Of a DNA stretch of 64,000 bases, positions 9,978 to 59,487 are shown in pieces. The notes beneath the pieces are model-generated. The model did no database searches. It saw nothing but the letters and a program-made list of their open reading frames with translations, and had not been told where the DNA came from. Within the stretch, counting starts at the first letter, position 1. Every line of letters begins with the position of its first letter. Both the position numbers and the translations under genes were made by a program. Source of the DNA: Candidatus Poribacteria bacterium. Its GTDB lineage: Bacteria > Poribacteria > WGA-4E > WGA-3G. The stretch covers positions 480,001 to 544,000 of the forward strand of contig CAXXLX010000001.1 of the NCBI GenBank assembly GCA_963665235.2, read 5' to 3'.

Positions 9978-10610
9978 ATGGGATTTCCTGTTTACGATTA
10001 CCGCACAGATGTCCGGAACGTTTTGGTAACACCCCAGATCCGCTCACGTTTCCTGAGAATGGAACCCGGACAGAGTGCACAACTACATAGTCATGACCTC
10101 GGTCACGAGATTTTCCTGATTCTGGAAGGGCGCGTTGAATTTGAAATCGATGGTGAAACGGAAGAGTTAGGCCCAGGACAGATGTGTGTCGCGCTAGCCG
10201 AGCAGCCGCACAAGGTACGTGTGCTCGGAGACGAACCGATGACGATGTATCTATCTGTCACACCCCATATCCATCCGACACACACACCGCGAACAGAAGA
10301 TGGCCAAAGACTTCCACCCAATTTCGCACCAGCGAGTGCTTACGATGTGGAACCGGATATGCAGATATCCGTGTCGGAGCTCGTTAAGCAGCAGATACAT
10401 GCCTCACAACAGCTTGCAGAACTCACCCGAAGGTGTACGGCGGTCCAGGAAGAAATGGGCAGCCAACTCAAAGCCGCAATTGCCGAAGGCGATGAACAGG
10501 CTGCCGCCGCAGCCCGAAAAGCCATGTGGGAAGCAATGTACCCTGTTTACAGAGCAGCCGCTGAACTAGCCGATATTTGGAATGAACTCGCACCACGCGC
10601 GACCTTGTAG
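9978..10610 (+). CDS. Cupin domain protein
   Basis: HSHD..HEIFLILEG and PHKV cupin motifs; helical C-terminus; GGAGG RBS. Confidence 0.85.
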   Translation: MGFPVYDYRTDVRNVLVTPQIRSRFLRMEPGQSAQLHSHDLGHEIFLILEGRVEFEIDGETEELGPGQMCVALAEQPHKVRVLGDEPMTMYLSVTPHIHPTHTPRTEDGQRLPPNFAPASAYDVEPDMQISVSELVKQQIHASQQLAELTRRCTAVQEEMGSQLKAAIAEGDEQAAAAARKAMWEAMYPVYRAAAELADIWNELAPRATL

Positions 10611-10756
10611 GATACTTTTTTAATTTGATTTACCGCTCTGATTTATGGTAGAATTACAAAAAACGGTCCTATGTGTAAAACGTCCATGCTCTAGGCGAGC
10701 GATGTGGTACCTACTCTCTAAAAAAAGATTTGACATTCACAAAGCGAATGTGTTAT

Positions 10757-11347
10757 CAAGTCCCAGCTACAAAACCCCTGTGCTTTAGCTGGGGGATGTA
10801 GTAGCGGCGCATGAGCTAAAATTTAACTTGACTTTTGCCTTAAAATGTTGTATAATATTAGCAGCTGCTGGTAAAGAAATACGACCCCGTGTTTACGCGT
10901 GTTCTCTACCAATCCCTTGTATTGGGTAGAGCAGTTGCAGCGAACCACAGACACTGCAAGCGGTATAAACTCTAAATATAGACCGGAATTCCCTGTAATA
11001 GGACGGTCTCACTACTACATATAGGTCTAGCTGGCCTGCTGTTGCCAAGTGCCCAAATACGTGAGCGGACTCTCTACTTAGCTGCCTGATAGTCCCCTGG
11101 AGGATACAAGCTATCTCCAGAGTGCGATGCACTAAAAAACTTGTCCTGATTTTTCCGCTAAACGGGAATTTCATGTATTGTAGGGCAGGGCATTGTCCTA
11201 CTTGGAGTAGAACGTGTTAGACTTGTTTTGTGAAGTCCTTCGGGACAGCAAACTGCAAGCGACGTTTGTTGATACCACAATCTACCCAGAGAGGCATTGG
11301 GCTCTTTACTAAGAATCCCCCATGCTTTAGCTGGGGGAGTATGTCAA
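10757..11347 (+). mobile_element. Non-autonomous IS200/IS605 (TnpB-type) element with no credible protein gene
   Basis: TTAT|CAAG left end, GCTTTAGC subterminal hairpins at both ends, right end GAATCCCC...GGGGAGTATGTCAA; internal TTGACT-17-TATAAT. Confidence 0.8.
11180..11347 (+). ncRNA. TnpB omega-RNA (reRNA)-like scaffold
   Basis: Structured right-end region ending in hairpin plus GTCAA; guide would be the downstream flank ACTACATGTATAAAATCGTA. Confidence 0.6.
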
Positions 11348-11747
11348 ACTACATGTATAAAATCGTATAGAAAAGCGTGGAAAATACCTTATTGCGGATT
11401 TTGCTTAACTTAAAATGAACTTTATGTCCCTAAGGTCCTTCGGTAAATGAACTTTATGTCCCTAAGGTCCTTCGGTGCACAAGCGGAGGTATCGTCTGTC
11501 GTTCTCAGCATTTGTAAGCCGGGCCATTCCGCAAGATGTGCTAACCGAGAACCCGAGCCGGTGGGAAAGCACATGAATCCGACAAAATAATCCCCTTTGA
11601 GCTGTCGAAGGAAAGTATATCAGATTGAAATGCCGATTTGCTTCGGTTTCACTTCGTTCAATTATTATAAATTTTTAAGGCATGCGGTTTTTCTTCCGTA
11701 GGTTTCCAAACCGCAAATTACAATAAATTAGCTAAGGAGTATTTTTT

Positions 11748-14609
11748 ATGAAAAACCAATTTTTCAATAGGAGAACCCTGTTTTTCCTATTGGCGATTGT
11801 AACATGTTTGGGATTTACAGCCATGAGTTACGGTGCAGCCACTGTCTCGGTTGATCCCGCTACACTTGAATCCCCAGCGGCCGGGGAACAATTCACAGTA
11901 GATATTACCATAGCAGGCGGCGCAGGCATCGCTGGTTACCAGGTAACCGTAAACTTCGATTCGACTGCGCTCAGTTATGTCTCTATTGCATATCAAGAAG
12001 ATTATCTTGAGAAACCCGCGGACCTATTAAGCCCCGTTACCGTATCTGATAATAGCGTAGTTTTTTGGGCAATAGGTGGTGCGCCGGATGGGGATCACAC
12101 CCTTGCTACGATAACATTTGAGGTTGTGGAAGCGAAAGAATCCGCCATTACCCTATCAGATATTGTTCTTTCTGATGCTGCTTCAGATGCATTAGAAGTC
12201 ACAACAGTAGATGGGGCGATTACTGTTCCCGCGACAGAAGAGCCAACAGACCCAACGGATGAACCAACAGACCCAACGGATGAACCAACAGATCCGACTG
12301 ATGAGCCAACAGACCCAACGGATGAACCAACAGATCCGACTGACGAGCCAACAGACCCAACGGATGAACCAACAGATCCGACTGACGAGCCAACAGACCC
12401 AACGGATGAACCAACAGATCCGACTGATGAGCCAACAGACCCAACGGATGAACCAACAGATCCGACTGACGAGCCAACAGACCCAACGGATGAACCAACA
12501 GATCCGACTGACGAGCCAACAGACCCAACGGATGAACCAACAGACCCAACGGATGAACCAACAGACCCAACGGATGAACCAACAGATCCGACTGAACCAA
12601 CGGAACCGACCGTAGCTACCGTTTCTGTCACTCCCGATACATTTGAATCTCCAGCGGTTGGGGACCAATTCTCTATAGATATTACCATAGCAGGTAGTGC
12701 AGGGGTTGCCGGTTACCAGGCGACTGTAAACTTTGATTCGACTGCACTCAGCTATGTCTCTATTGCATATCGAGAAGACTATCTTGAGAAACCCGCGGAC
12801 CTCTTAAACCCCGTTAATGTATCCGAAAATAGCGTACATTTCTGGGCGTTGGGTAGTGCACCGGATGGTGACCACACGCTTGCTACGATAACATTTGAAG
12901 TGATTGAGGCGAAAGAATCCGCTATTACCTTGTCAAACGTTCTACTTTCTGATGCTGCTTCAGGTGCATTGACAGTCACAACTACAGATGGAATGATCAT
13001 TGCTCCCTCGACAGAGCCACCAGAGCCGCCAGTGGAACCAAAAGAGCAACTCTTTGAAATTACCCTCACCAGCCTCACCGTGGGACCACCGGGAGGACAA
13101 ATCTTTTCGCCACCCATCTTTGCTACACACACATCAGCGGCAAATCTCGGCATGGTTGGGGAACCCGCCAATCCGGCACTCGTCACCCTTGCTGAAACTG
13201 GAGCTGTCTCAGGGTTACTTGCACTTGCTGGAGCCGTAGGCGCGAATACTGCTGTCGCAGATGGGCTAGTTCTTCCGGGCCAGTCCGTTACCGTTCGGTT
13301 AACTGGCAACGCAATGAACAATTCACTTACCGCCGCGGCAATGTTAGTTTCAACAAATGATGGGTTCATCCTTGGCAGTATACCGCTCTACGATGAGGAC
13401 GGTATGCCTGTGTCCACAACGTTGGATTTAATAGCTTTCGATGCAGGTAGCGAAGAAAACACAGAGCTTGCATCCGATATTCCGGGGCCGACCGCTGCCC
13501 TTGAGGAAAACCCAGGCGCAACCAATGCGCGTGTACCAACAGAAGATGGCGTAATCATGCCACACCCTGGCGTTCAAGGCATTGGCGATTTGCCCCCAAC
13601 ACTTTTAGGTTGGACAGAACCGGTGGCGACCCTAACAATCACCCCGGTATCCGATGAAGAGCCACCGGTAGACCCGGAGCCACCGGAACCTACCGAACCT
13701 AGCTATGACATCGTGCTTGAACGCGGATTAAACATGATCGCTGTTCCGCTGATGCCCGAAGAGCCCTACACAGCGGCATCGCTTGCCGAAAAGTTAGGCG
13801 CAACAATTGTCATCAAATTAGAGGCTGACACACAGCGACTCCTCGGCTATTCCGCAGCTGAAGAAGGAGATGGCTTCGCTATCGAAGGTGGAAAAGGGTA
13901 CATCGTCAATACACCCACAGGTGGAACCGTAACATTTACAGGCACTGCATGGAACAACCAAACTGTTGATGCACCCGCTGCACCGAGTACCACCACCGCT
14001 AAGAACGCCTGGGCATTCGTTATCACAAGTCAATTGCATGATAAAGAACCCGGGGCATCTTACACCCTAGTGTCCAAAAACCTTCGCACGGGAGTTGTCG
14101 CAACCAAGAATGTTACCAGCGACGATGCAAGCAGCTCAACTGCCTGGGCAAATCTCGACCTCCAGAGCGTCGTTGAAGCCGGTGATCGGGTTGAAATTAC
14201 ACTCCTCGACGAACGCGGCACCGTTGTCTCCGGACCGTTTGAACGCACAATTCAAACCTCCGATATTCACAACGCATATCTGAGCGTGCAGCTGCGAGTT
14301 GGCGATGTCCGTCCGAACGAAACACTCCTCGGACAGAACTTCCCGAACCCGTTCAACCCCGAAACATGGATACCTTATCAACTGAATCGCGACACCCTCG
14401 TGACCATTGAAATCTTTGATGTTTCCGGGCATTTGGTTCGTACGCTAGACCTAGGACATAAGTCAACAGGCACATACATGACGACTTCAACAGCAGCTTA
14501 TTGGGATGGGAAAAATGACGCAGGCGAAGCTGTCTCCAGCGGGATATATTTCTATGTCCTCAAAACAGAGAACTTCTCTGCAACGCGCAGAATGGTCATC
14601 CTCAAGTAG
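11748..14609 (+). CDS. Secreted protein: two cohesin-like domains, PTD(E/P) linker, Spondin_N-like domain, C-terminal FlgD-Ig/sorting domain
   Basis: Signal peptide; VNFDSTALSY..LATITFEV twice; QIFSPPIFATH..LAETG..TNDGF..FDAGSEEN; NFPNPFNPETWIPYQL..YWDGKN..GIYFY. Confidence 0.85.
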   Translation: MKNQFFNRRTLFFLLAIVTCLGFTAMSYGAATVSVDPATLESPAAGEQFTVDITIAGGAGIAGYQVTVNFDSTALSYVSIAYQEDYLEKPADLLSPVTVSDNSVVFWAIGGAPDGDHTLATITFEVVEAKESAITLSDIVLSDAASDALEVTTVDGAITVPATEEPTDPTDEPTDPTDEPTDPTDEPTDPTDEPTDPTDEPTDPTDEPTDPTDEPTDPTDEPTDPTDEPTDPTDEPTDPTDEPTDPTDEPTDPTDEPTDPTDEPTDPTDEPTDPTDEPTDPTEPTEPTVATVSVTPDTFESPAVGDQFSIDITIAGSAGVAGYQATVNFDSTALSYVSIAYREDYLEKPADLLNPVNVSENSVHFWALGSAPDGDHTLATITFEVIEAKESAITLSNVLLSDAASGALTVTTTDGMIIAPSTEPPEPPVEPKEQLFEITLTSLTVGPPGGQIFSPPIFATHTSAANLGMVGEPANPALVTLAETGAVSGLLALAGAVGANTAVADGLVLPGQSVTVRLTGNAMNNSLTAAAMLVSTNDGFILGSIPLYDEDGMPVSTTLDLIAFDAGSEENTELASDIPGPTAALEENPGATNARVPTEDGVIMPHPGVQGIGDLPPTLLGWTEPVATLTITPVSDEEPPVDPEPPEPTEPSYDIVLERGLNMIAVPLMPEEPYTAASLAEKLGATIVIKLEADTQRLLGYSAAEEGDGFAIEGGKGYIVNTPTGGTVTFTGTAWNNQTVDAPAAPSTTTAKNAWAFVITSQLHDKEPGASYTLVSKNLRTGVVATKNVTSDDASSSTAWANLDLQSVVEAGDRVEITLLDERGTVVSGPFERTIQTSDIHNAYLSVQLRVGDVRPNETLLGQNFPNPFNPETWIPYQLNRDTLVTIEIFDVSGHLVRTLDLGHKSTGTYMTTSTAAYWDGKNDAGEAVSSGIYFYVLKTENFSATRRMVILK
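12238..12610 (+). repeat. Coding 21-bp tandem repeat (EPTDPTD, about 18 copies)
   Basis: Visible in DNA and translation. Confidence 0.95.
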
Positions 14610-14615
14610 GCTTAA

Positions 14616-15010
14616 CACGCCTCCGTCAAATCCCCATGCTTTAGCTTGTGGGATGTAGACGGCTCAGGGCGTTGTTGAAAAATTTAATTTGACTTTTACC
14701 GAAAAATGTGGTATAATTATATCAGCATCGTGGACAGCATTCTCAGACTACACTCTCATGTAGTTGCTGTCCCTCAACCCTGAGAAGTTGCGTGATGCTG
14801 GTGCGAAATCACTGAAAACATTTCGGGATACACCGACGCTACATGTGGAGTAGAATCCCAGTCAACAGTGTGTATCCCCTCAATTCTATTCTAAAACGGG
14901 CAGGCTTAGCTGCCCTAAGTGGAGACGATGTCCGACGAGTTATCCCTCAGGGGTAACCGCTGTTGTCGAGGAAGCACAAGCCCCCACCTTTAGGTGGTGG
15001 GTACTATGAC
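14616..15010 (+). mobile_element. Second non-autonomous IS200/IS605 (TnpB-type) element, no ORF
   Basis: GCTTTAGC left hairpin, TTGACT-17-TATAAT, right end GAAGCACAAGCCCCCACCTTTAGGTGGTGGGTACTATGAC; ends approximate. Confidence 0.75.
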
Positions 15011-15028
15011 CAACTAACACGTAACAAT

Positions 15029-15100
15029 AAAAACGCCCCGACTGCCGGTTTTCCGAGCGTGAATCAATTCCGATTAACGTCGGCGGTGGGGCGTTTTTTC
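15029..15100 (+). terminator. Intrinsic terminator-like hairpin
   Basis: AAAAACGCCCC...GGGGCGTTTTTT. Confidence 0.6.
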
Positions 15101-15110
15101 AATTAATTAT

Positions 15111-15425
15111 ACCTAAGTTGCCACCTAGTAGCACAAACTTCCTAGTTTGGGTCTTCCATAAGGGCGCGAACTAGGAAGTTCACGCTACAATTAACAGCAG
15201 TTTTTGACTAATTAACGCAAGTTGCCACCTAGTAGCACAAACTTCCTAGTTTGGGTCTTCCATAAGGGCGCGAACTAGGAAGTTCACGCTACAATTAACA
15301 GCAGTTTTTGACTAATTAACGCAAGTTGCCACCTAGTAGCACAAACTTCCTAGTTTGGGTCTTCCATAAGGGCGCGAACTAGGAAGTTCACGCTACAATT
15401 AACAGCAGTTTTTGACTAATTAGAT
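15111..15425. mobile_element. ACCTAAGTTGC-type MITE with three tandem ~101-bp units, each an inverted REP pair (REPIN-like)
   Basis: TAATTAT at 15104-15110 and 15426-15432; GTAGCACAAACTTCCTAGTTTG...GAACTAGGAAGTTCACGCTAC three times. Confidence 0.75.
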
Positions 15426-15453
15426 TAATTATACGGTAGAGGTGTCGGTTTTG

Positions 15454-18400: not shown

Positions 18401-19352
18401 AAACGATACTACAAAAACTGCTGAAGCAACAACCACTACAACCGTTTTACCTGTTTACGGGGTTGCATTAGCAGGTGTAGACGAGCTGACAAAAGAGATA
18501 GCGACAGCAGGCGAACCGGTCAGCTATACGTTCAAAATCACAAATACAGGCAACACAGCCGATGTCATAGATATAGCAACGACAGGCGATGCGGCCGCCA
18601 CATTAAGTCAGACCACTATCTCACTATCCGCCGGGGCTTCAGCAGAAGTGACGATGACAGTCCCTACGACCGCACTAGCAACTGCCGGCGATTACGTTGT
18701 CACGTTTACAGTCACTTCCCAGGGGGATAGCACACAAACCGCTAAAACGACAACCACAACCACTCTTCTGCCAGTTACACCGGTTTATAGTGTCACGTTT
18801 GAAGGGGATAGTGAACATACTGGCTCAACCGTGGATGTGCTGTCGGGTGTGAGTTATACACTCACGGTCACAAACACCGGGAATATGGATGACACGATAC
18901 TGCTTGGCTCTTCAGCAGAGGCTGGCATTGAAGGGAGTATGCTCGGGGCATTCGCTGCTATAGATTCACCAGAACAGCGGAGTGGTCAGTTAGAAGTTGT
19001 ACTAGCCGCCGGAACATCTGCCGAGGTTATCTTCACAGCGGCAGGAGATTTCTTTACAAAACCGGGCGACTATGCAATTGAAGTTACGGCAACATCGCAA
19101 GCGGATACCACAAAAACCGCCGTGCTTACCATAACAACAACGATAACCCCTGTACCCTCAGACGTGAATGCTGATGGGGTGGTAAATATTTTGGATTTAG
19201 TGAAAGTTGCCAATCAATTCGGTGAAGTTGGCGATGGTCTCGTTGGGGATGTGAACATAGATGGGCGCGTAAATATCCTTGATTTAGTAAAGGTCTCCTC
19301 CCGTTTCGGTAAGACCCAAGTGGAGATTGTCGAAATCTTGCCGCCCCTTTAA
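15454..19352 (+). CDS. Large secreted protein: Reeler/choice-of-anchor-V-like domain with CxxCH, about nine Ig-like repeats, C-terminal dockerin; one frameshift near 17527
   Basis: TGAPNEGNCTQCH..WTFKWTAP..FYAAGNAAN; TNTGNTxD repeats; DVNADGVVNILDL and DVNIDGRVNILDL; ACAGTGCG vs ACAGGTGCG in the sister repeat. Confidence 0.8.
17335..18480 (+). repeat. Three near-identical 369-bp coding repeats
   Basis: Shadow ORFs at 17743 and 18112 repeat with a 369-bp period. Confidence 0.9.
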
Positions 19353-19380
19353 AAAGCAGCTTAGGAGAATACGTGTGTTT

Positions 19381-19914
19381 ATTGTAGCATAAACTTCCAG
19401 TTTGTGTCCTTTATTGTAGCATAAACTTCCAGTTTGTGTCCTTTATCGTAGCATAAACTTCCAGTTTGTGTCCTTTATCGTAGCATAAACTTCCAGTTTG
19501 TGTCCTTTATCGTAGCATAAACTTCCAGTTTGTGTCCTTTATCGTAGCATAAACTTCCAGTTTGTGTCCTTTATCGTAGCATAAACTTCCAGTTTGTGTC
19601 CTTTATCGTAGCATAAACTTCCAGTTTGTGTCCTTTATCGTAGCATAAACTTCCAGTTTGTGTCCTTTATCCGTATAAACTTCCAGTTTGTGTCCTTTAT
19701 CGTAGCATAAACTTCCAGTTTGTGTCCTTTATCGTAGCATAAACTTCCAGTTTGTGTCCTTTATCGTAGCATAAACTTCCAGTTTGTGTCCTTTATCGTA
19801 GCATAAACTTCCAGTTTGTGTCCTTTATCGTAGCATAAACTTTTAGTTTGGGTCTTCCGTTCTCCGTTTCATTTCTAACAACCGGTAATGATAGAATAAT
19901 TAATAAAAATGGTA
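19381..19914. mobile_element. TACC MITE lacking a clear left end, about 15 tandem 32-bp REP units
   Basis: ATCGTAGCATAAACTTCCAGTTTGTGTCCTTT repeats; same right arm ending AAATGGTA. Confidence 0.85.
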
Positions 19915-19994
19915 TTAGAACGAAGACTACCGAAACAGAAGAACTGTGACACCTGCTCTGACGATTAGGATGTCACTCGATATGGAGAAGAAAA

Positions 19995-23467: not shown

Positions 23468-23951
23468 TACCATTTCTAATTGAAAATGTCTCTTTATTGT
23501 AGCATAAACTTCCAGTTTGTGCCTTGTAGCATAAACTTCCAGTTTGTGCCTTGTAGCATAAACTTCCAGTTTGTGCCTTGTAGCATAAACTTCCCTTGTA
23601 GCATAAACTTCCAGTTTGTGCCTTGTAGCATAAACTTCCAGTTTGTGCCTTGTAGCATAAACTTCCAGTTTGTGCCTTGTAGCATAAACTTCCAGTTTGT
23701 GCCTTGTAGCATAAACTTCCAGTTTGTGCCTTGTAGCATAAACTTCCAGTTTGTGCCTTGTAGCATAAACTTCCAGTTTGTGCCTTGTAGCATAAACAGT
23801 TTGTGCCTTGTAGCATAAACTTCCAGTTTGTGCCTTGTAGCATAAACTTCCAGTTTGTGCGTTATTGTAGCATAAACTTTTAGTTTGGGTCTTCCGTTCT
23901 CCGTTTCATTTCTAACAACCGGTAATGATAGAATAATTAATAAAAATGGTA
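23468..23951. mobile_element. TACC MITE with about 15 tandem 27-bp REP units
   Basis: TAA|TACCATTT...AAATGGTA|TAA. Confidence 0.88.
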
Positions 23952-24552: not shown

Positions 24553-25002
24553 GTCAATAACCCCCCGCTAAAGCGTGGGGGCTTGTCCAAGATGGTAGCC
24601 ACCCTGTAACTTGGGTGAGGGCAACTTATTGACTACCGTAATATATCGCGATATCGAGGCGTGGCAGCCTCAACGTATCCATTAAAACGCTATAGTCAAG
24701 TGGTAGTTTCTATAGCTAGGTCCTGCTCCCCAAGGGTTGGGTTCATGCGGGTATCGTGATCGGGATGGGGCAATATACACTCCGAAAGGAGACTTACCTG
24801 TTTTCTCAAAGATACCGTGTCAGGTCAAGTAAACAGAAAGTGCGAGTTCTGTTGAACGAAGCAGCACAGTTTGCGAGGAGCGCCTACGGGAAACTTGTGG
24901 CGAAAAAACAACCCGACTCCCCTTTGGGGGAAATCTAAAACGAATAGGAGCGGTGTTTCCTCCCCCGCATAAATGCTGGGGGTTTCCACACCGAATATTT
25001 TG
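24553..25002 (+). mobile_element. Non-autonomous IscB-type (HEARO/omega-RNA) IS200/IS605 element
   Basis: GTCAATAACCCCCCGCTAAAGCGTGGGGGCTTG...TTATTGAC start; terminal hairpin CCCCCGCATAAATGCTGGGGG; followed by ATGA; absent at the paralogous site 27384/27385. Confidence 0.82.
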
Positions 25003-52480: not shown

Positions 52481-52873
52481 ATGAGTAAAGATGAAACCGT
52501 CTCTCGGATAAAAAAACGGCGGCTTGAACTAAGCATGACACAGACCCAGTTAGCGAAAATCGCAAACTTAACACCTGCAGCCATCTCACAGTTCGAGTCT
52601 GGGACCCGCAAACCCTCTTTTAACACGCTCGCTGGCCTGTCCGAGGCCCTAAAGGTAACAACAGATTATCTTCTCGGTAAAGAGGAATTGCGATACGATG
52701 ACCTTCTTGCGGACCCGAAGGTTAGTCTCATGTTTAGAGGCATGATGGAATTCACAGAGCGCGATAAGGAAACCCTCTATGAGTTCTATAAATTCCTCAA
52801 GACACAAGCGGATGATGCTACATCAGATGCCACATCAGATGCTACATCAAGTGAAGGTTCATCGGGTCAATAA
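52481..52873 (+). CDS. XRE-family HTH regulator
   Basis: RIKKRRLELSMTQTQLA..ISQFESGTRKP..TTDYLLG. Confidence 0.92.
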   Translation: MSKDETVSRIKKRRLELSMTQTQLAKIANLTPAAISQFESGTRKPSFNTLAGLSEALKVTTDYLLGKEELRYDDLLADPKVSLMFRGMMEFTERDKETLYEFYKFLKTQADDATSDATSDATSSEGSSGQ

Positions 52874-53432
52874 CCCCCAGCTAAAGCATGGGGGCTTGTC
52901 CCTGATGTCCGCCAAGGCTATCACAGGGACGAGGGTAACTTGTTGACTACCGTAATATATCGCAGATGCTGGACGTGGCAGTCCAAAGTATGGTTATCTA
53001 AAAAGGTGGCTTGTTTGTGGTAAAAGCAAGTTGCTGAAGGGTGCTCCCCAAGCCTTAACCCACTACGCTTATGTGATCGGGATGGGGCAATATATACCCG
53101 TGTAAGCGGAGAGCCCGAGAGGGTCCTTACCTGCTTTCTCAAAGAGACCGTGTCAGGTCGGCTCGGAGATGGTGACAGCACTGAAGAGCAGGCTGTTTGC
53201 CTGAATACTGAAAAGAAGCAGCACACTCGGAGAGGATCGCCCACGGGATTGTGGCGAAAAAACAACCCGAAGGAGGAAAACGAATGAACTTCGTTCATTT
53301 GTTTTCCCTCCCCCCCTTTGGGGTAATCTAAAACCGAAAAAGAGGCGGTGTTAGGAGGAAAGCTAATGAACTTCGTTCATTCGTTTTCCCTCCCCCGCAT
53401 AAATGCTAGGGGTCTCCACACCGAATATTTTG
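52866..53432 (+). mobile_element. Second non-autonomous IscB-type omega-RNA element
   Basis: Same GTCAATAACCCCC start and CCACACCGAATATTTTG end as 24553-25002; followed by ATGA. Confidence 0.82.
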
Positions 53433-56025: not shown

Positions 56026-56321
56026 TACCATTTTTATTAATTATTCTATCATTACCGGTTGTTAGAAATGAAACGGAGAACGGAAGACCCAAACTAAAAG
56101 TTTATGCTACAAGGAGGCACAAACTGGAAGTTTATGCTACAAGGAGGCACAAACTGGAAGTTTATGCTACAAGGAGGCACAAACTGGAAGTTTATGCTAC
56201 AAGGAGGCACAAACTGGAAGTTTATGCTACAAGGAGGCACAAACTGGAAGTTTATGCTACAAGGAGGCACAAACTGGAAGTTTATGCTACAAGAAAGAGA
56301 CATTTTCAATTAGAAATGGTA
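56026..56321. mobile_element. TACC MITE (reverse orientation) with seven 30-bp REP units, nested in another MITE
   Basis: TAA TSD shown by the empty site at 55670-55672. Confidence 0.9.
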
Positions 56322-56361
56322 TAAGTAGCAACTTGGGTTACACTATCAAACCGCTAAATAT

Positions 56362-57658: not shown

Positions 57659-58918
57659 CTAAAGGCGTGTGCTTCTTTGCCTCCTCAGGGGAGGCTTACT
57701 TGATTTGAGCCCCGAAAACGGTGACCACTTATCAAGTCGACGCAGGTGCGGATTAAACCGAACACCTGTGGGGGATACCACAGCCCCGACTACAGGGTTG
57801 AAAAGCCAGCCCTGATACTTTGTCAAAATGTTGCTTGCCCACACAACGTCTCTGTGTCCGTTCCAACCGCATTTAGAACAGTGGTAATTTCTGCCACTCG
57901 GCTTCTTGCGATTACGGCAACTCGGACAAGTTTGTGAGGTATAGGCTTCGTTTTCTGTCTCAACGTTGATGCCTACCGCTTTTGCTTTGTAGGTTATCAG
58001 GTGTTCGATTTTTGAGAAAGACCACTGGTGCAACTTCTGATTGGCGTTTTTGCTATAGTTAATAGATTGTCGTATGTGCTTAATGTCACCAATGACAATC
58101 GTTTCTATCCTTCGCTCTCGGCAGGAAGAAACAAATCGAGACGTGATTTTGTGACGCATATCACGTAATTGATTAGCAAGCGATGCAAGCGTTCTATCTT
58201 TAGCACGTTTTAGTTTTTTCCAACGCTTGCTATAACGTTTGCACCTTGATAGTTTTTGGTTGATTTTCGCCTTAAACTTTTCGCAATACCTTGCTTTACT
58301 TCGGATTTCGCGGCCGTTATAAATCTCGGAATTAAGTCCATCAAAAGCAACAATCGGATGTATTTCGCCCATGTCCACAGCAACCACAGGACCCGCTTTT
58401 ACTTTTGTCCGCTTCGGTTGCGTTACGTAGGTTGCGTGGAACTCGTATTGTTTCGTGGTTCGGTTATAGACAAGTGAGACTCCAGCGGGCACTTTCTTAT
58501 GGAACTTCTTATCAATCTTAATCCAGAGTGGGTCTCTGCCTTTGCCCAGAGAAAGCCGTAGCTTACCGTGCTTGTAGGTGATACCTGTAGCACGCCACGT
58601 GAAAGTATGGAACTTATGCTTTGGAGGCTTTGCTTTGGGATTAGAAGCTTTATTAGAAAAGAAAGAACGCCTTGCACCGCAATAGTCGTCTATGATTGCC
58701 TGAACGCTATGGGCATGGCAGGGATACCGCTTGAATTTGAGATATGCCTTAAGTCCACCGTCTGAAATCCAAAAGCCTTTTCGCCTGTGTGTTTTGAACG
58801 CAAGCGATACCGTTTTTGAATAGATACGACCGCCAAGCCGATTCATCTCGTCTAACTGCTCTGTAGGCTTGGCGGTTCCTATGATATAAGTGAGATAATC
58901 ATTTTTGGACCTAGACAT
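57659..58918 (-). CDS. tnpB: RNA-guided endonuclease TnpB
   Basis: AVDMG, IVIGD, EAYTSQTCPSC..CSKC, HRD..ASNI. Confidence 0.92.
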   Translation of the reverse strand: MSRSKNDYLTYIIGTAKPTEQLDEMNRLGGRIYSKTVSLAFKTHRRKGFWISDGGLKAYLKFKRYPCHAHSVQAIIDDYCGARRSFFSNKASNPKAKPPKHKFHTFTWRATGITYKHGKLRLSLGKGRDPLWIKIDKKFHKKVPAGVSLVYNRTTKQYEFHATYVTQPKRTKVKAGPVVAVDMGEIHPIVAFDGLNSEIYNGREIRSKARYCEKFKAKINQKLSRCKRYSKRWKKLKRAKDRTLASLANQLRDMRHKITSRFVSSCRERRIETIVIGDIKHIRQSINYSKNANQKLHQWSFSKIEHLITYKAKAVGINVETENEAYTSQTCPSCRNRKKPSGRNYHCSKCGWNGHRDVVWASNILTKYQGWLFNPVVGAVVSPTGVRFNPHLRRLDKWSPFSGLKSSKPPLRRQRSTRL

Positions 58919-59324
58919 TCTTTTCATCCTCAATATACTTTTTGACAACTTCTAAGGATACACACCCAACCGACGATATGAATTTGGAACGCGTCCACAG
59001 AGAGGGTAAACCGGATTTTAGGTGTGGAAATCCCTCACGCAAGACTTTAGAGGTGAAACCTTTTAGCATCCAAACTGTCCGAGTGACTGGCACTTTCGGA
59101 TTGGTTTCTATGATAAGATGCACAGGGTCTTCCATCACCTCACTGGCACACACCTTAAAATCTAAATCGGTTTGTTTGGAGCATATCAGATGATGCAACC
59201 GTTCTTGTATAGGTTCGGTTAAAACCTTGCGCCGATACTTCGGACACCAGATAACAGGATACTGACAACTATAGACAAGGTTCGTATCAGAATACCAACT
59301 CTTTTCTGGGTTCTTAATAAACAT
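58911..59324 (-). CDS. tnpA: IS200-type Y1 transposase with degenerate HUH motif
   Basis: WCPKYRRKVL, DPVHL instead of DHVHL, LKG, LWTRS, KKYIE. Confidence 0.88.
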   Translation of the reverse strand: MFIKNPEKSWYSDTNLVYSCQYPVIWCPKYRRKVLTEPIQERLHHLICSKQTDLDFKVCASEVMEDPVHLIIETNPKVPVTRTVWMLKGFTSKVLREGFPHLKSGLPSLWTRSKFISSVGCVSLEVVKKYIEDEKNV

Positions 59325-59487
59325 TATACTATATCCTTTATCTGTTAGTTTCTCTAATATAGGATAACATATTTTTTAGATAATGTCAACTATTTTAGCT
59401 GTCACAGAGGCACGGGCGTTACGGGGTTGGACCCACAGCTAAAGCAGTGGGATTGTTAAGTGAGTCCCTTCAGTTTACGAATAGCAG

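Follow-up and report, generated by a model that had tools for sequence, protein, structure and literature searches.

The DNA analysed here, a window of 64,000 nucleotides from a Candidatus Poribacteria bacterium, holds two short transposon-like elements, A and B, in which an apparently pseudoknotted RNA follows an internal promoter. The question raised by this locus is what such an RNA represents: a structured non-coding RNA that took the place of the transposon genes, as the initial annotation proposed, or a part of the transcript that complete elements possess as well. Cas12 descends from TnpB/omega-RNA elements, which now serve as genome-editing tools; to our knowledge, little has been learned about the means by which these elements, within their hosts, express the nuclease and the guide RNA and keep the two in balance.

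Element A (10757-11347, plus strand) is a 591-nt, protein-free, PATE-like mini element of the IS200/IS605 type. Its left end is preceded by TTAT (10753-10756), a tetranucleotide that precedes all copies with such a left end and that may constitute a TAM-like target motif. A motif search located a subterminal hairpin at the left end (10776-10796), with the right-end hairpin at 11318-11338; the hairpin motif (10776, 11318) occurs in 73 copies in the genome at no more than two mismatches, the reversed-pattern control giving 0. The last ~160 nt of A (11186-11347), which include the right-end hairpin, can be aligned in successive blocks with the tnpB 3' end plus the right end of elements encoding a 400-aa TnpB, as well as with other mini elements, and from this alignment they are expected to be an omega-RNA scaffold. 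In the established layout of TnpB omega RNAs the guide lies directly 3' of the right end, and by analogy the plus-strand flank at 11348-11367 can be read as a putative guide. At BLAST level, the likeness between A and the 400-aa TnpB elements is limited to about 95 nt at the left end and about 75 nt at the right end. The part of A lying between the structured RNA and the omega-RNA homolog (10939-11185, 247 nt) is hairpin-rich, as the initial annotation had indicated; only A and its paralog carry copies of it, it was found in 0 of 100 other genomes of the family, and it has no Rfam match. Some RNA-library contigs are about 93% alike to this middle part and have different flanks.

Element B (14616-15010, plus strand) is a 395-nt mini element of a second family, with copies at C1:1263202, C1:851243 and C1:102435 in the same genome, and its target-side flank is TTAA as against TTAT for the A family. 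Its omega-RNA part and right end (14894-15010) were recognized by likeness to loci encoding a 388-aa TnpB; in three of these loci the stretch directly behind the TnpB zinc-ribbon match is 86% identical to the 3' part of B. A 953-aa ORF (11748-14609), with an array of 21-nt tandem repeats inside (12150-12674), lies between A and B, and B is inserted between the stop codon of this ORF and a terminator-like hairpin at 15076-15095.

An ORF search found no credible ORF in either element. The longest ORF of A, on the minus strand, comprises 93 aa; the paralog does not retain it and Pfam gives no match to it. A tblastn search of A with TnpB proteins, only some of the 22 being whole, gave an overlap at the right end and nothing else. 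Four RNA libraries (X1-X4) made from related strains in one study contain contigs that connect 10756 with 11348 and 14615 with 15011, each in two runs, and that correspond to the empty sites of A and B; as assembled sequences, these contigs carry no start, end, strand or level, and the stretches that they leave uncovered are without meaning. These empty sites indicate that both elements are discrete insertions, and the borders originally given for B agree exactly with the corresponding contig. End hairpins, absence of ORFs and empty sites together bear out the earlier description of A and B as protein-free elements of the TnpB type.

The same genome could supply the missing proteins, as it contains 44 matches to the TnpB domain PF07282 and 13 to the Y1 transposase domain PF01797, one of the latter within an element with an A-type left end. 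In 35 left ends a common hairpin and promoter block was recognized: in about 11 of them the right end is found ~1300 nt past the promoter block, with matches to the 400-aa tnpB inside, and in about 16 it is just 286-508 nt away. Each mini element possesses a strong internal promoter, a structured 5' RNA and an omega-RNA-like 3' part. By their sequence, A and B are very probably PATE-like derivatives that underwent internal deletion while keeping promoter, leader and omega RNA, and they would depend on TnpA and TnpB provided elsewhere in the genome. PATEs have been described as IS200/IS605 mini elements that lack protein genes and specify omega RNAs (Meers et al., bioRxiv 10.1101/2023.03.14.532601), and, as far as the accessible text of that preprint goes, A and B resemble them in having ends of the full-length type, no gene, an omega-RNA-like 3' part and a need for TnpA and TnpB in trans. 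They differ from the description given in that text in having an internal promoter followed by a conserved pseudoknotted leader. The initial annotation had seen in A an RNA-only OMEGA satellite; the promoter-driven, protein-free nature of A and B agrees with this, and such satellites have already been described as PATEs (bioRxiv 10.1101/2023.03.14.532601, in the same accessible text).

In element A the pseudoknotted leader extends from 10861 to 10938 on the plus strand. Helix P1 (10861-10869 with 10930-10938) has 9 bp including one G-U, P2 (10870-10878 with 10902-10910) has 9 bp with one A.C mismatch at 10874, and P3 is formed by 10914-10916 and 10924-10926. The loop of P3 (10917-10923, TTGTATT) can establish 7 bp, one of them G-U, with AATACGA at 10878-10884, a bulge that separates P2 from a weak inner hairpin, P2a; A10878 is common to the pseudoknot and P2. 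P1, P2 with its mismatch, P3 and the 7-bp loop pairing had been correctly placed in the initial annotation, as had the position of the leader directly after a promoter. The latter (10828-10856, plus strand) is of the sigma-70 type, TTGACT-17-TATAAT, with 11 of 12 consensus matches, and is conserved in 35 left ends; P1 begins 4 nt past the promoter end at 10856. The nested helices correspond to the minimum-free-energy structure (-26.5 kcal/mol; z -3.56, with 0 of 200 shuffles equally good), in which both pseudoknot strands are left unpaired, and folding of the whole 509-nt RNA returns the leader as a separate 5' domain. A competing hairpin, CTCTACC/GGTAGAG, had also been pointed out; it is present in A, but is mismatched in the paralog and absent from a further copy at C1:691803-691883. 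In the paralog (C1:1891914-1891992) P1 is kept, P2 is perfect, and the pseudoknot, ATTAACG/CGTTAAT, is fully compensated with respect to that of A.

The leader of B (14720-14803, plus strand) has the same topology with unrelated sequence, as claimed, and lies behind a B promoter (14689-14717, plus strand; TTGACT-17-TATAAT with an upstream TG) that is as strong as the one in A. Its P1 has 12 bp, its P2 8 bp and its P2a 6 bp, and its pseudoknot is TTCTCAG/CTGAGAA. A promoter-anchored scan recovered the same architecture from 10 or more sequence families in the genome, a few bases past the -10 box in each case, and follows a fixed order: P1, P2, a 7-nt bulge, the P2a hairpin, the 3' strand of P2, a short joiner, P3 and the 3' strand of P1, with the P3 loop complementary to the 7-nt bulge throughout. 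Anchoring on promoters provided a discrimination that a genome-wide scan for P2 and pseudoknot alone did not, since the latter gave 2024 matches against 1872 in reversed sequence and, with stem filters, 19-84 against 6-91.

An alignment of all 20 copies by MAFFT was structurally wrong, and a seed-and-realign approach was used instead, in which 10 well-aligned copies served as seed for a first covariance model, 17 copies of the own genome were realigned with Infernal, and a model named R2 was built from these 17, the pseudoknot being excluded. The realignment, performed at E ≤0.01, left out three true copies (L022, L023, L030). R2 matches the A leader with 50 bits (E 9e-9) and the B leader with 69 bits. 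Among the 17 own-genome copies 95.1% of the cells pair (63.9% after shuffling), among 48 distinct copies from other genomes 98.0% (66.1%), and among the 30 of other genomes that lack an ORF 97.8% (73.7%), these figures for nested pairing being inflated by the common descent of the copies and by their selection with a nested-helix model. The pseudoknot, which is unaffected by this bias, pairs in 88%, 96.7% and 96.6% of the cells, respectively. When the 3' partners of the 48 copies are slid by 1-3 columns, pairing falls to 38-43%. Changes on both sides are seen at 31 of the 35 pairs in these copies, pseudoknot included, with compensatory double changes at five of the seven pseudoknot pairs, and none of 500 shuffles attains the observed pairing values in either the 48-copy or the ORF-less set. 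The covariation that had been suggested as a check is thus strong, and it reaches the helix that the model did not contain.

A chance fold, or a neutral relic devoid of function, is extremely improbable in view of these data. It is true that the copies are of common descent and were spread by transposition, and that their shared structure is in part inheritance. Against a chance fold or relic stand the double changes at so large a fraction of the pairs, the unmodelled pseudoknot among them, the failure of every shuffle to match, and the maintenance of a single topology by ten or more sequence families within one genome.

Could the fold belong to a known class of RNA? Searches with Rfam 15 gave no match in the window and two chance-level matches elsewhere in 10500-15400, and for 19 copies they returned five matches, all with E ≥0.42 and far below gathering; there was none to IS605-orfB-I (RF03065), HEARO (RF02033), group I introns, small ribozymes or riboswitches, so that no known Rfam family accounts for the leader. 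A compact pseudoknotted three-way junction at the 5' end of a transcript, with alternative pairings adjoining P1, is the kind of structure that could be anticipated for a small self-cleaving ribozyme or a ligand-sensing riboswitch. However, no Rfam ribozyme or riboswitch matched at E up to 10, helices and pseudoknot vary freely, and inspection of the alignments by eye disclosed no invariant unpaired core across families, which makes such a function highly improbable. The fold was also considered as a candidate for the TnpB omega RNA itself and rejected, because it sits at the predicted transcription start while the omega-RNA homolog of A is found at 11186-11347.

The context of the fold in full-length elements provides the major clue to its identity. 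In this genome it lies between the left-end promoter and the tnpB start of full-length elements without tnpA, at C1:1109095-1109180, C1:602518-602603, C1:667348-667413 and C1:331072-331157, the tnpB genes behind it encoding two proteins of 420 aa, one of 422 aa and one of 368 aa. Seventy-two copies, 50 from other genomes and 22 from this one, were inspected for ORFs; an ORF of at least 300 aa begins within 60 nt of the fold in 14 of them. In other genomes eight of 11 such ORFs encode TnpB according to Pfam, and the three in the own genome coincide with places of PF07282 matches. The tnpB start codon is found 11-16 nt past the fold (P1) in 10 of the 11 TnpB-bearing copies; the longest frame of the eleventh begins 2 nt past the fold and has its first ATG at 11 nt. 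The mini elements retain what appear to be the first codons of tnpB, with the ATG changed. A fold that precedes intact tnpB genes, together with relics of the tnpB start in the mini elements, indicates an ancestral leader that was kept through internal deletion.

The original proposal, that the pseudoknotted RNA is a cargo installed in place of tnpA and tnpB, does not survive this comparison. In its broader form, an independent structured RNA with a function of its own, possibly exerted in trans, it could invoke the 58 of 72 copies that have no long ORF behind the fold (promoter-driven, RNA-only omega satellites are in fact the commonest carriers of the motif) as well as the self-contained nature of the domain, and, from the accessible text on IS200, a transposon leader with an action in trans has a precedent in the 5' tnpA leader described below. 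Yet the same fold stands at a fixed distance before intact tnpB genes, the mini elements carry relics of the tnpB start, and the families have no conserved unpaired stretch in common that might act as a trans-pairing seed. We regard an independent cargo as quite unlikely, and on sequence grounds are confident that the fold is the native 5' leader of the transcript driven by the left-end promoter in tnpA-less TnpB elements of the IS200/IS605 type.

Some copies of the fold are found in other surroundings. In three other genomes it is followed, 17-49 nt downstream, by ORFs that are not tnpB (L071:1501-1583, L075:1501-1578 and L051:1501-1584) and that are dockerin-like, PLD/helicase and FGE-sulfatase, respectively; these may be promoters captured along with their leaders, or remnants. 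At C1:691803-691883 (minus strand) a fossil that lacks end hairpins but still comprises the promoter, a pseudoknot that is intact and some 17 codons of tnpB lies upstream of a dnaA-like ORF.

The leader is tightly bound to its promoter. A promoter of strict pattern ends 0-20 nt before the R2 match in 51 of the 72 copies, the distance being 0-8 nt in 49 of the 51, and near-consensus promoters can be discerned by eye in most of the other 21. This bears on whether the structure could act as DNA. The transposition of IS200/IS605 elements uses folded top-strand DNA, and the fold is on the same strand as the end hairpins, so it could conceivably form in the single-stranded top strand and aid TnpA-mediated excision or integration. 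A role of this type is, however, very unlikely: the fold is anchored to the promoter (0-8 nt past the -10 box) and not to the element end, it is missing from copies that share the left end and carry tnpA, and the sense strand frequently forms G-U pairs (16, 12 and 11 cells at three pairs, for example).

In those tnpA-bearing copies, which have the promoter in common as well, the place of the fold is taken by a short leader that contains a Shine-Dalgarno motif, and the abundant family of 400-aa TnpB proteins presents a simpler leader only, meaning that not all elements need the fold. The absence of a Shine-Dalgarno motif before tnpB says little, given that ~43% of long ORFs in this genome are without one (it is present at only 57% of 2222 crude ORF starts). 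Leaders have also been exchanged among families, as A itself illustrates, being a chimera whose leader resembles that of an element encoding a 373-aa TnpB and whose omega RNA and right end are those of the 400-aa family.

As to what the leader does, the fact that the fold is intact and shows compensatory change in copies without an ORF means that the selected function cannot be translational alone, and its preservation in 30 such copies indicates an action on the RNA itself. Persistence in ORF-less copies, position at the predicted transcription start and the lack of a conserved unpaired core jointly favour a cis-acting, 5'-terminal fold. In the model that we propose, the leader begins within a few nucleotides of the predicted transcription start and forms a three-way junction locked by the 7-bp pairing of the P3 loop with the 7-nt bulge between P2 and P2a; in full-length copies tnpB follows 11-16 nt downstream, with the omega RNA at the 3' end, and the leader would operate in cis on its own transcript. 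Such a fold would shield the RNA 5' end from 5'-end-dependent decay and would stop upstream RNA from disturbing the folding of the omega RNA, leading to more guide RNA. The supply of guide RNA would thereby rise from tnpB mRNAs and RNA-only satellites alike. As a whole, a tnpB leader with a cis-acting 5' fold is moderately probable and the best explanation at present, while the specifically protective or insulating mechanism is put forward more tentatively, at a little less than an even chance. A plain 5' hairpin would suffice for protection, and the elaborate, conserved pseudoknot hints accordingly at something more specific.

The main rival to a purely 5'-terminal action is a specific interaction with TnpB, in which TnpB or a host factor would bind the pseudoknot, either for autoregulation of tnpB translation or for loading or processing of the omega RNA in the same transcript. 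The gene 32 protein of phage T4 is said to autoregulate its translation in such a manner, at a pseudoknot in its own mRNA. The leader is found only in transcripts with tnpB and/or omega RNA and not before tnpA, it is kept in ORF-less mini elements, its distance to the AUG is constant and accompanied by a second register of P1, and protein-bound scaffolds typically conserve their structure and not their sequence. On the other hand, leader types are shuffled among omega-RNA and TnpB families, which argues against a specific contact that co-evolves, and the 400-aa TnpB family works with a simpler leader. Taken together, these observations leave a TnpB-specific role rather unlikely, and action in cis at the 5' end is still the preferred interpretation.

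The second register consists in a tandem repetition of the 3' strand of P1 right before the tnpB AUG, which covaries with the 5' strand of P1. It was seen in L035, L036, L041, L056, L086, L087 and others, and in the own genome at C1:1109176-1109200, the sequences involved differing between families. The spacer preceding the AUG pairs with the P1 5' strand over at least six contiguous bp in 12 of 19 tnpB copies (each p ≤0.02 by shuffling), and the test failed in the remaining seven. In tnpB copies the closing of this alternative P1 onto the AUG could throttle TnpB translation. In mini elements of the B type, it is the P1 3' strand that has an alternative partner, an ATCAC-like stretch located downstream. 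An extension of the model is conceivable, although we consider it doubtful, in which the leader is a dedicated OMEGA module, namely a 5' handle read by TnpB, a host RNase or the ribosome, required for the production or stability of guide RNA from promoter-driven, RNA-only satellites and functioning as a two-register switch in tnpB copies. If this were true, the switch would couple the synthesis of nuclease to the supply of guide RNA, revealing a new layer of transposon self-regulation and providing a portable part for the expression of TnpB guide RNAs.

Several known systems share features with this leader. The ompA leader is a 5'-terminal stabilizer structure, and the predicted base pairing from the first transcribed nucleotides onward is reminiscent of stabilizers of this type; in T4 gene 32 mRNA, in turn, a pseudoknot likewise precedes a start codon whose ribosome-binding site is weak. 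Neither has homology to the fold, and their mechanisms were established by experiment, unlike the one proposed here, which derives from comparative sequence analysis. The TnpB omega RNA (reRNA) is also structured, belongs to the same transposon family and the same transcript, and reportedly contains a pseudoknot; it occupies, however, the 3' end, where it overlaps the right end as well as the terminal part of tnpB, whereas the leader is at the 5' end, ~250 nt (A) or ~90 nt (B) upstream of it, and of unrelated sequence.

The 5' leader of IS200 tnpA is highly structured, limits translation and survives as a stable small RNA, 5'tnpA (PMC4513863, PMC5435999, PMC12594629). To the extent covered by the accessible portions of these articles, it is comparable to the present fold as a structured transcript 5' end within the same IS superfamily, but it precedes tnpA, is composed of stem-loops and is opposed by an antisense RNA, while the fold of TnpB elements is pseudoknotted, precedes tnpB or omega RNA and is absent before tnpA. 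In IStrons, group I introns are found at the 5' side of TnpB elements (bioRxiv 10.1101/2023.11.20.567912; PMC13565253); the accessible text likewise places a structured RNA in the 5' part of the element, on a transcript shared with the omega RNA. A group I intron is longer than 200 nt, as against ~80 nt for the present fold, which matches none of the group I families of Rfam and, since it stands behind its own promoter, is not removed from a host transcript by splicing. According to the accessible parts of the literature, it is also known that tnpB mRNA is processed into omega RNA and that an inhibitory region lies within the mRNA. In the literature searched, as far as accessible passages of main text go, a pseudoknotted 5' leader was not found described for TnpB elements. 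Judging from the sequences, the leader appears to be a new, well-supported RNA motif within a known kind of element, and not a new kind of system. It has a clear genetic context, matches no Rfam family and lends itself to direct and cheap experiments.

The distribution of the motif was surveyed with R2, which finds 29 copies in the own genome, at least one match in 23 of 41 near relatives (own genome counted) and in 95 of 151 genomes sampled from the phylum, with several hundred matches in total. By family, matches occur in 81 of 99 genomes of f1, 12 of 26 of f3, one of 10 of f2 and none of 15 of f4-f9. Among 80 TnpB loci of a species-representative collection the fold precedes tnpB in nine, eight of them titled Candidatus or uncultured Poribacteria and the ninth from a MAG. 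R2 at E ≤1 has no match in 62 TnpB loci (L103-L165 without L114), none of which is titled Poribacteria, and a second scanner, applied to 59 of the 80 loci, gave no score above 41 from L103 on, the best control reaching 40, although both tools were tuned on the own lineage and divergent versions could escape them. Among the genomes searched, the motif looks lineage-restricted, the lineage being in all probability that of the Poribacteria. A degenerate right end comes directly after the fold in L033 (1220-1340) and L034, two genomes that belong to a single genus, and an omega-RNA scaffold is missing from between the two parts.

Other elements of the window deserve mention. An autonomous IS605-type element is located at 57659-59451 (minus strand), with tnpB at 57659-58948, tnpA at 58926-59276 and a left-end hairpin at 59432-59451. 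Two ORF-less elements, at ~24553-24990 and ~52866-53390 (both minus strand), have ~430-500 nt in common; they carry no pseudoknot leader according to R2, and terminate in the same right-end hairpin, their left-end hairpin being a different one. Finally, tandem arrays with units of 27-32 nt are present at 923-1436, 19293-19950, 23470-23905 and 56055-56324, and also at 15115-15426. They adjoin a common promoter-like flank of ~68 nt, one mini element carries such an array, and BLAST detects hundreds of copies of them throughout the genome.
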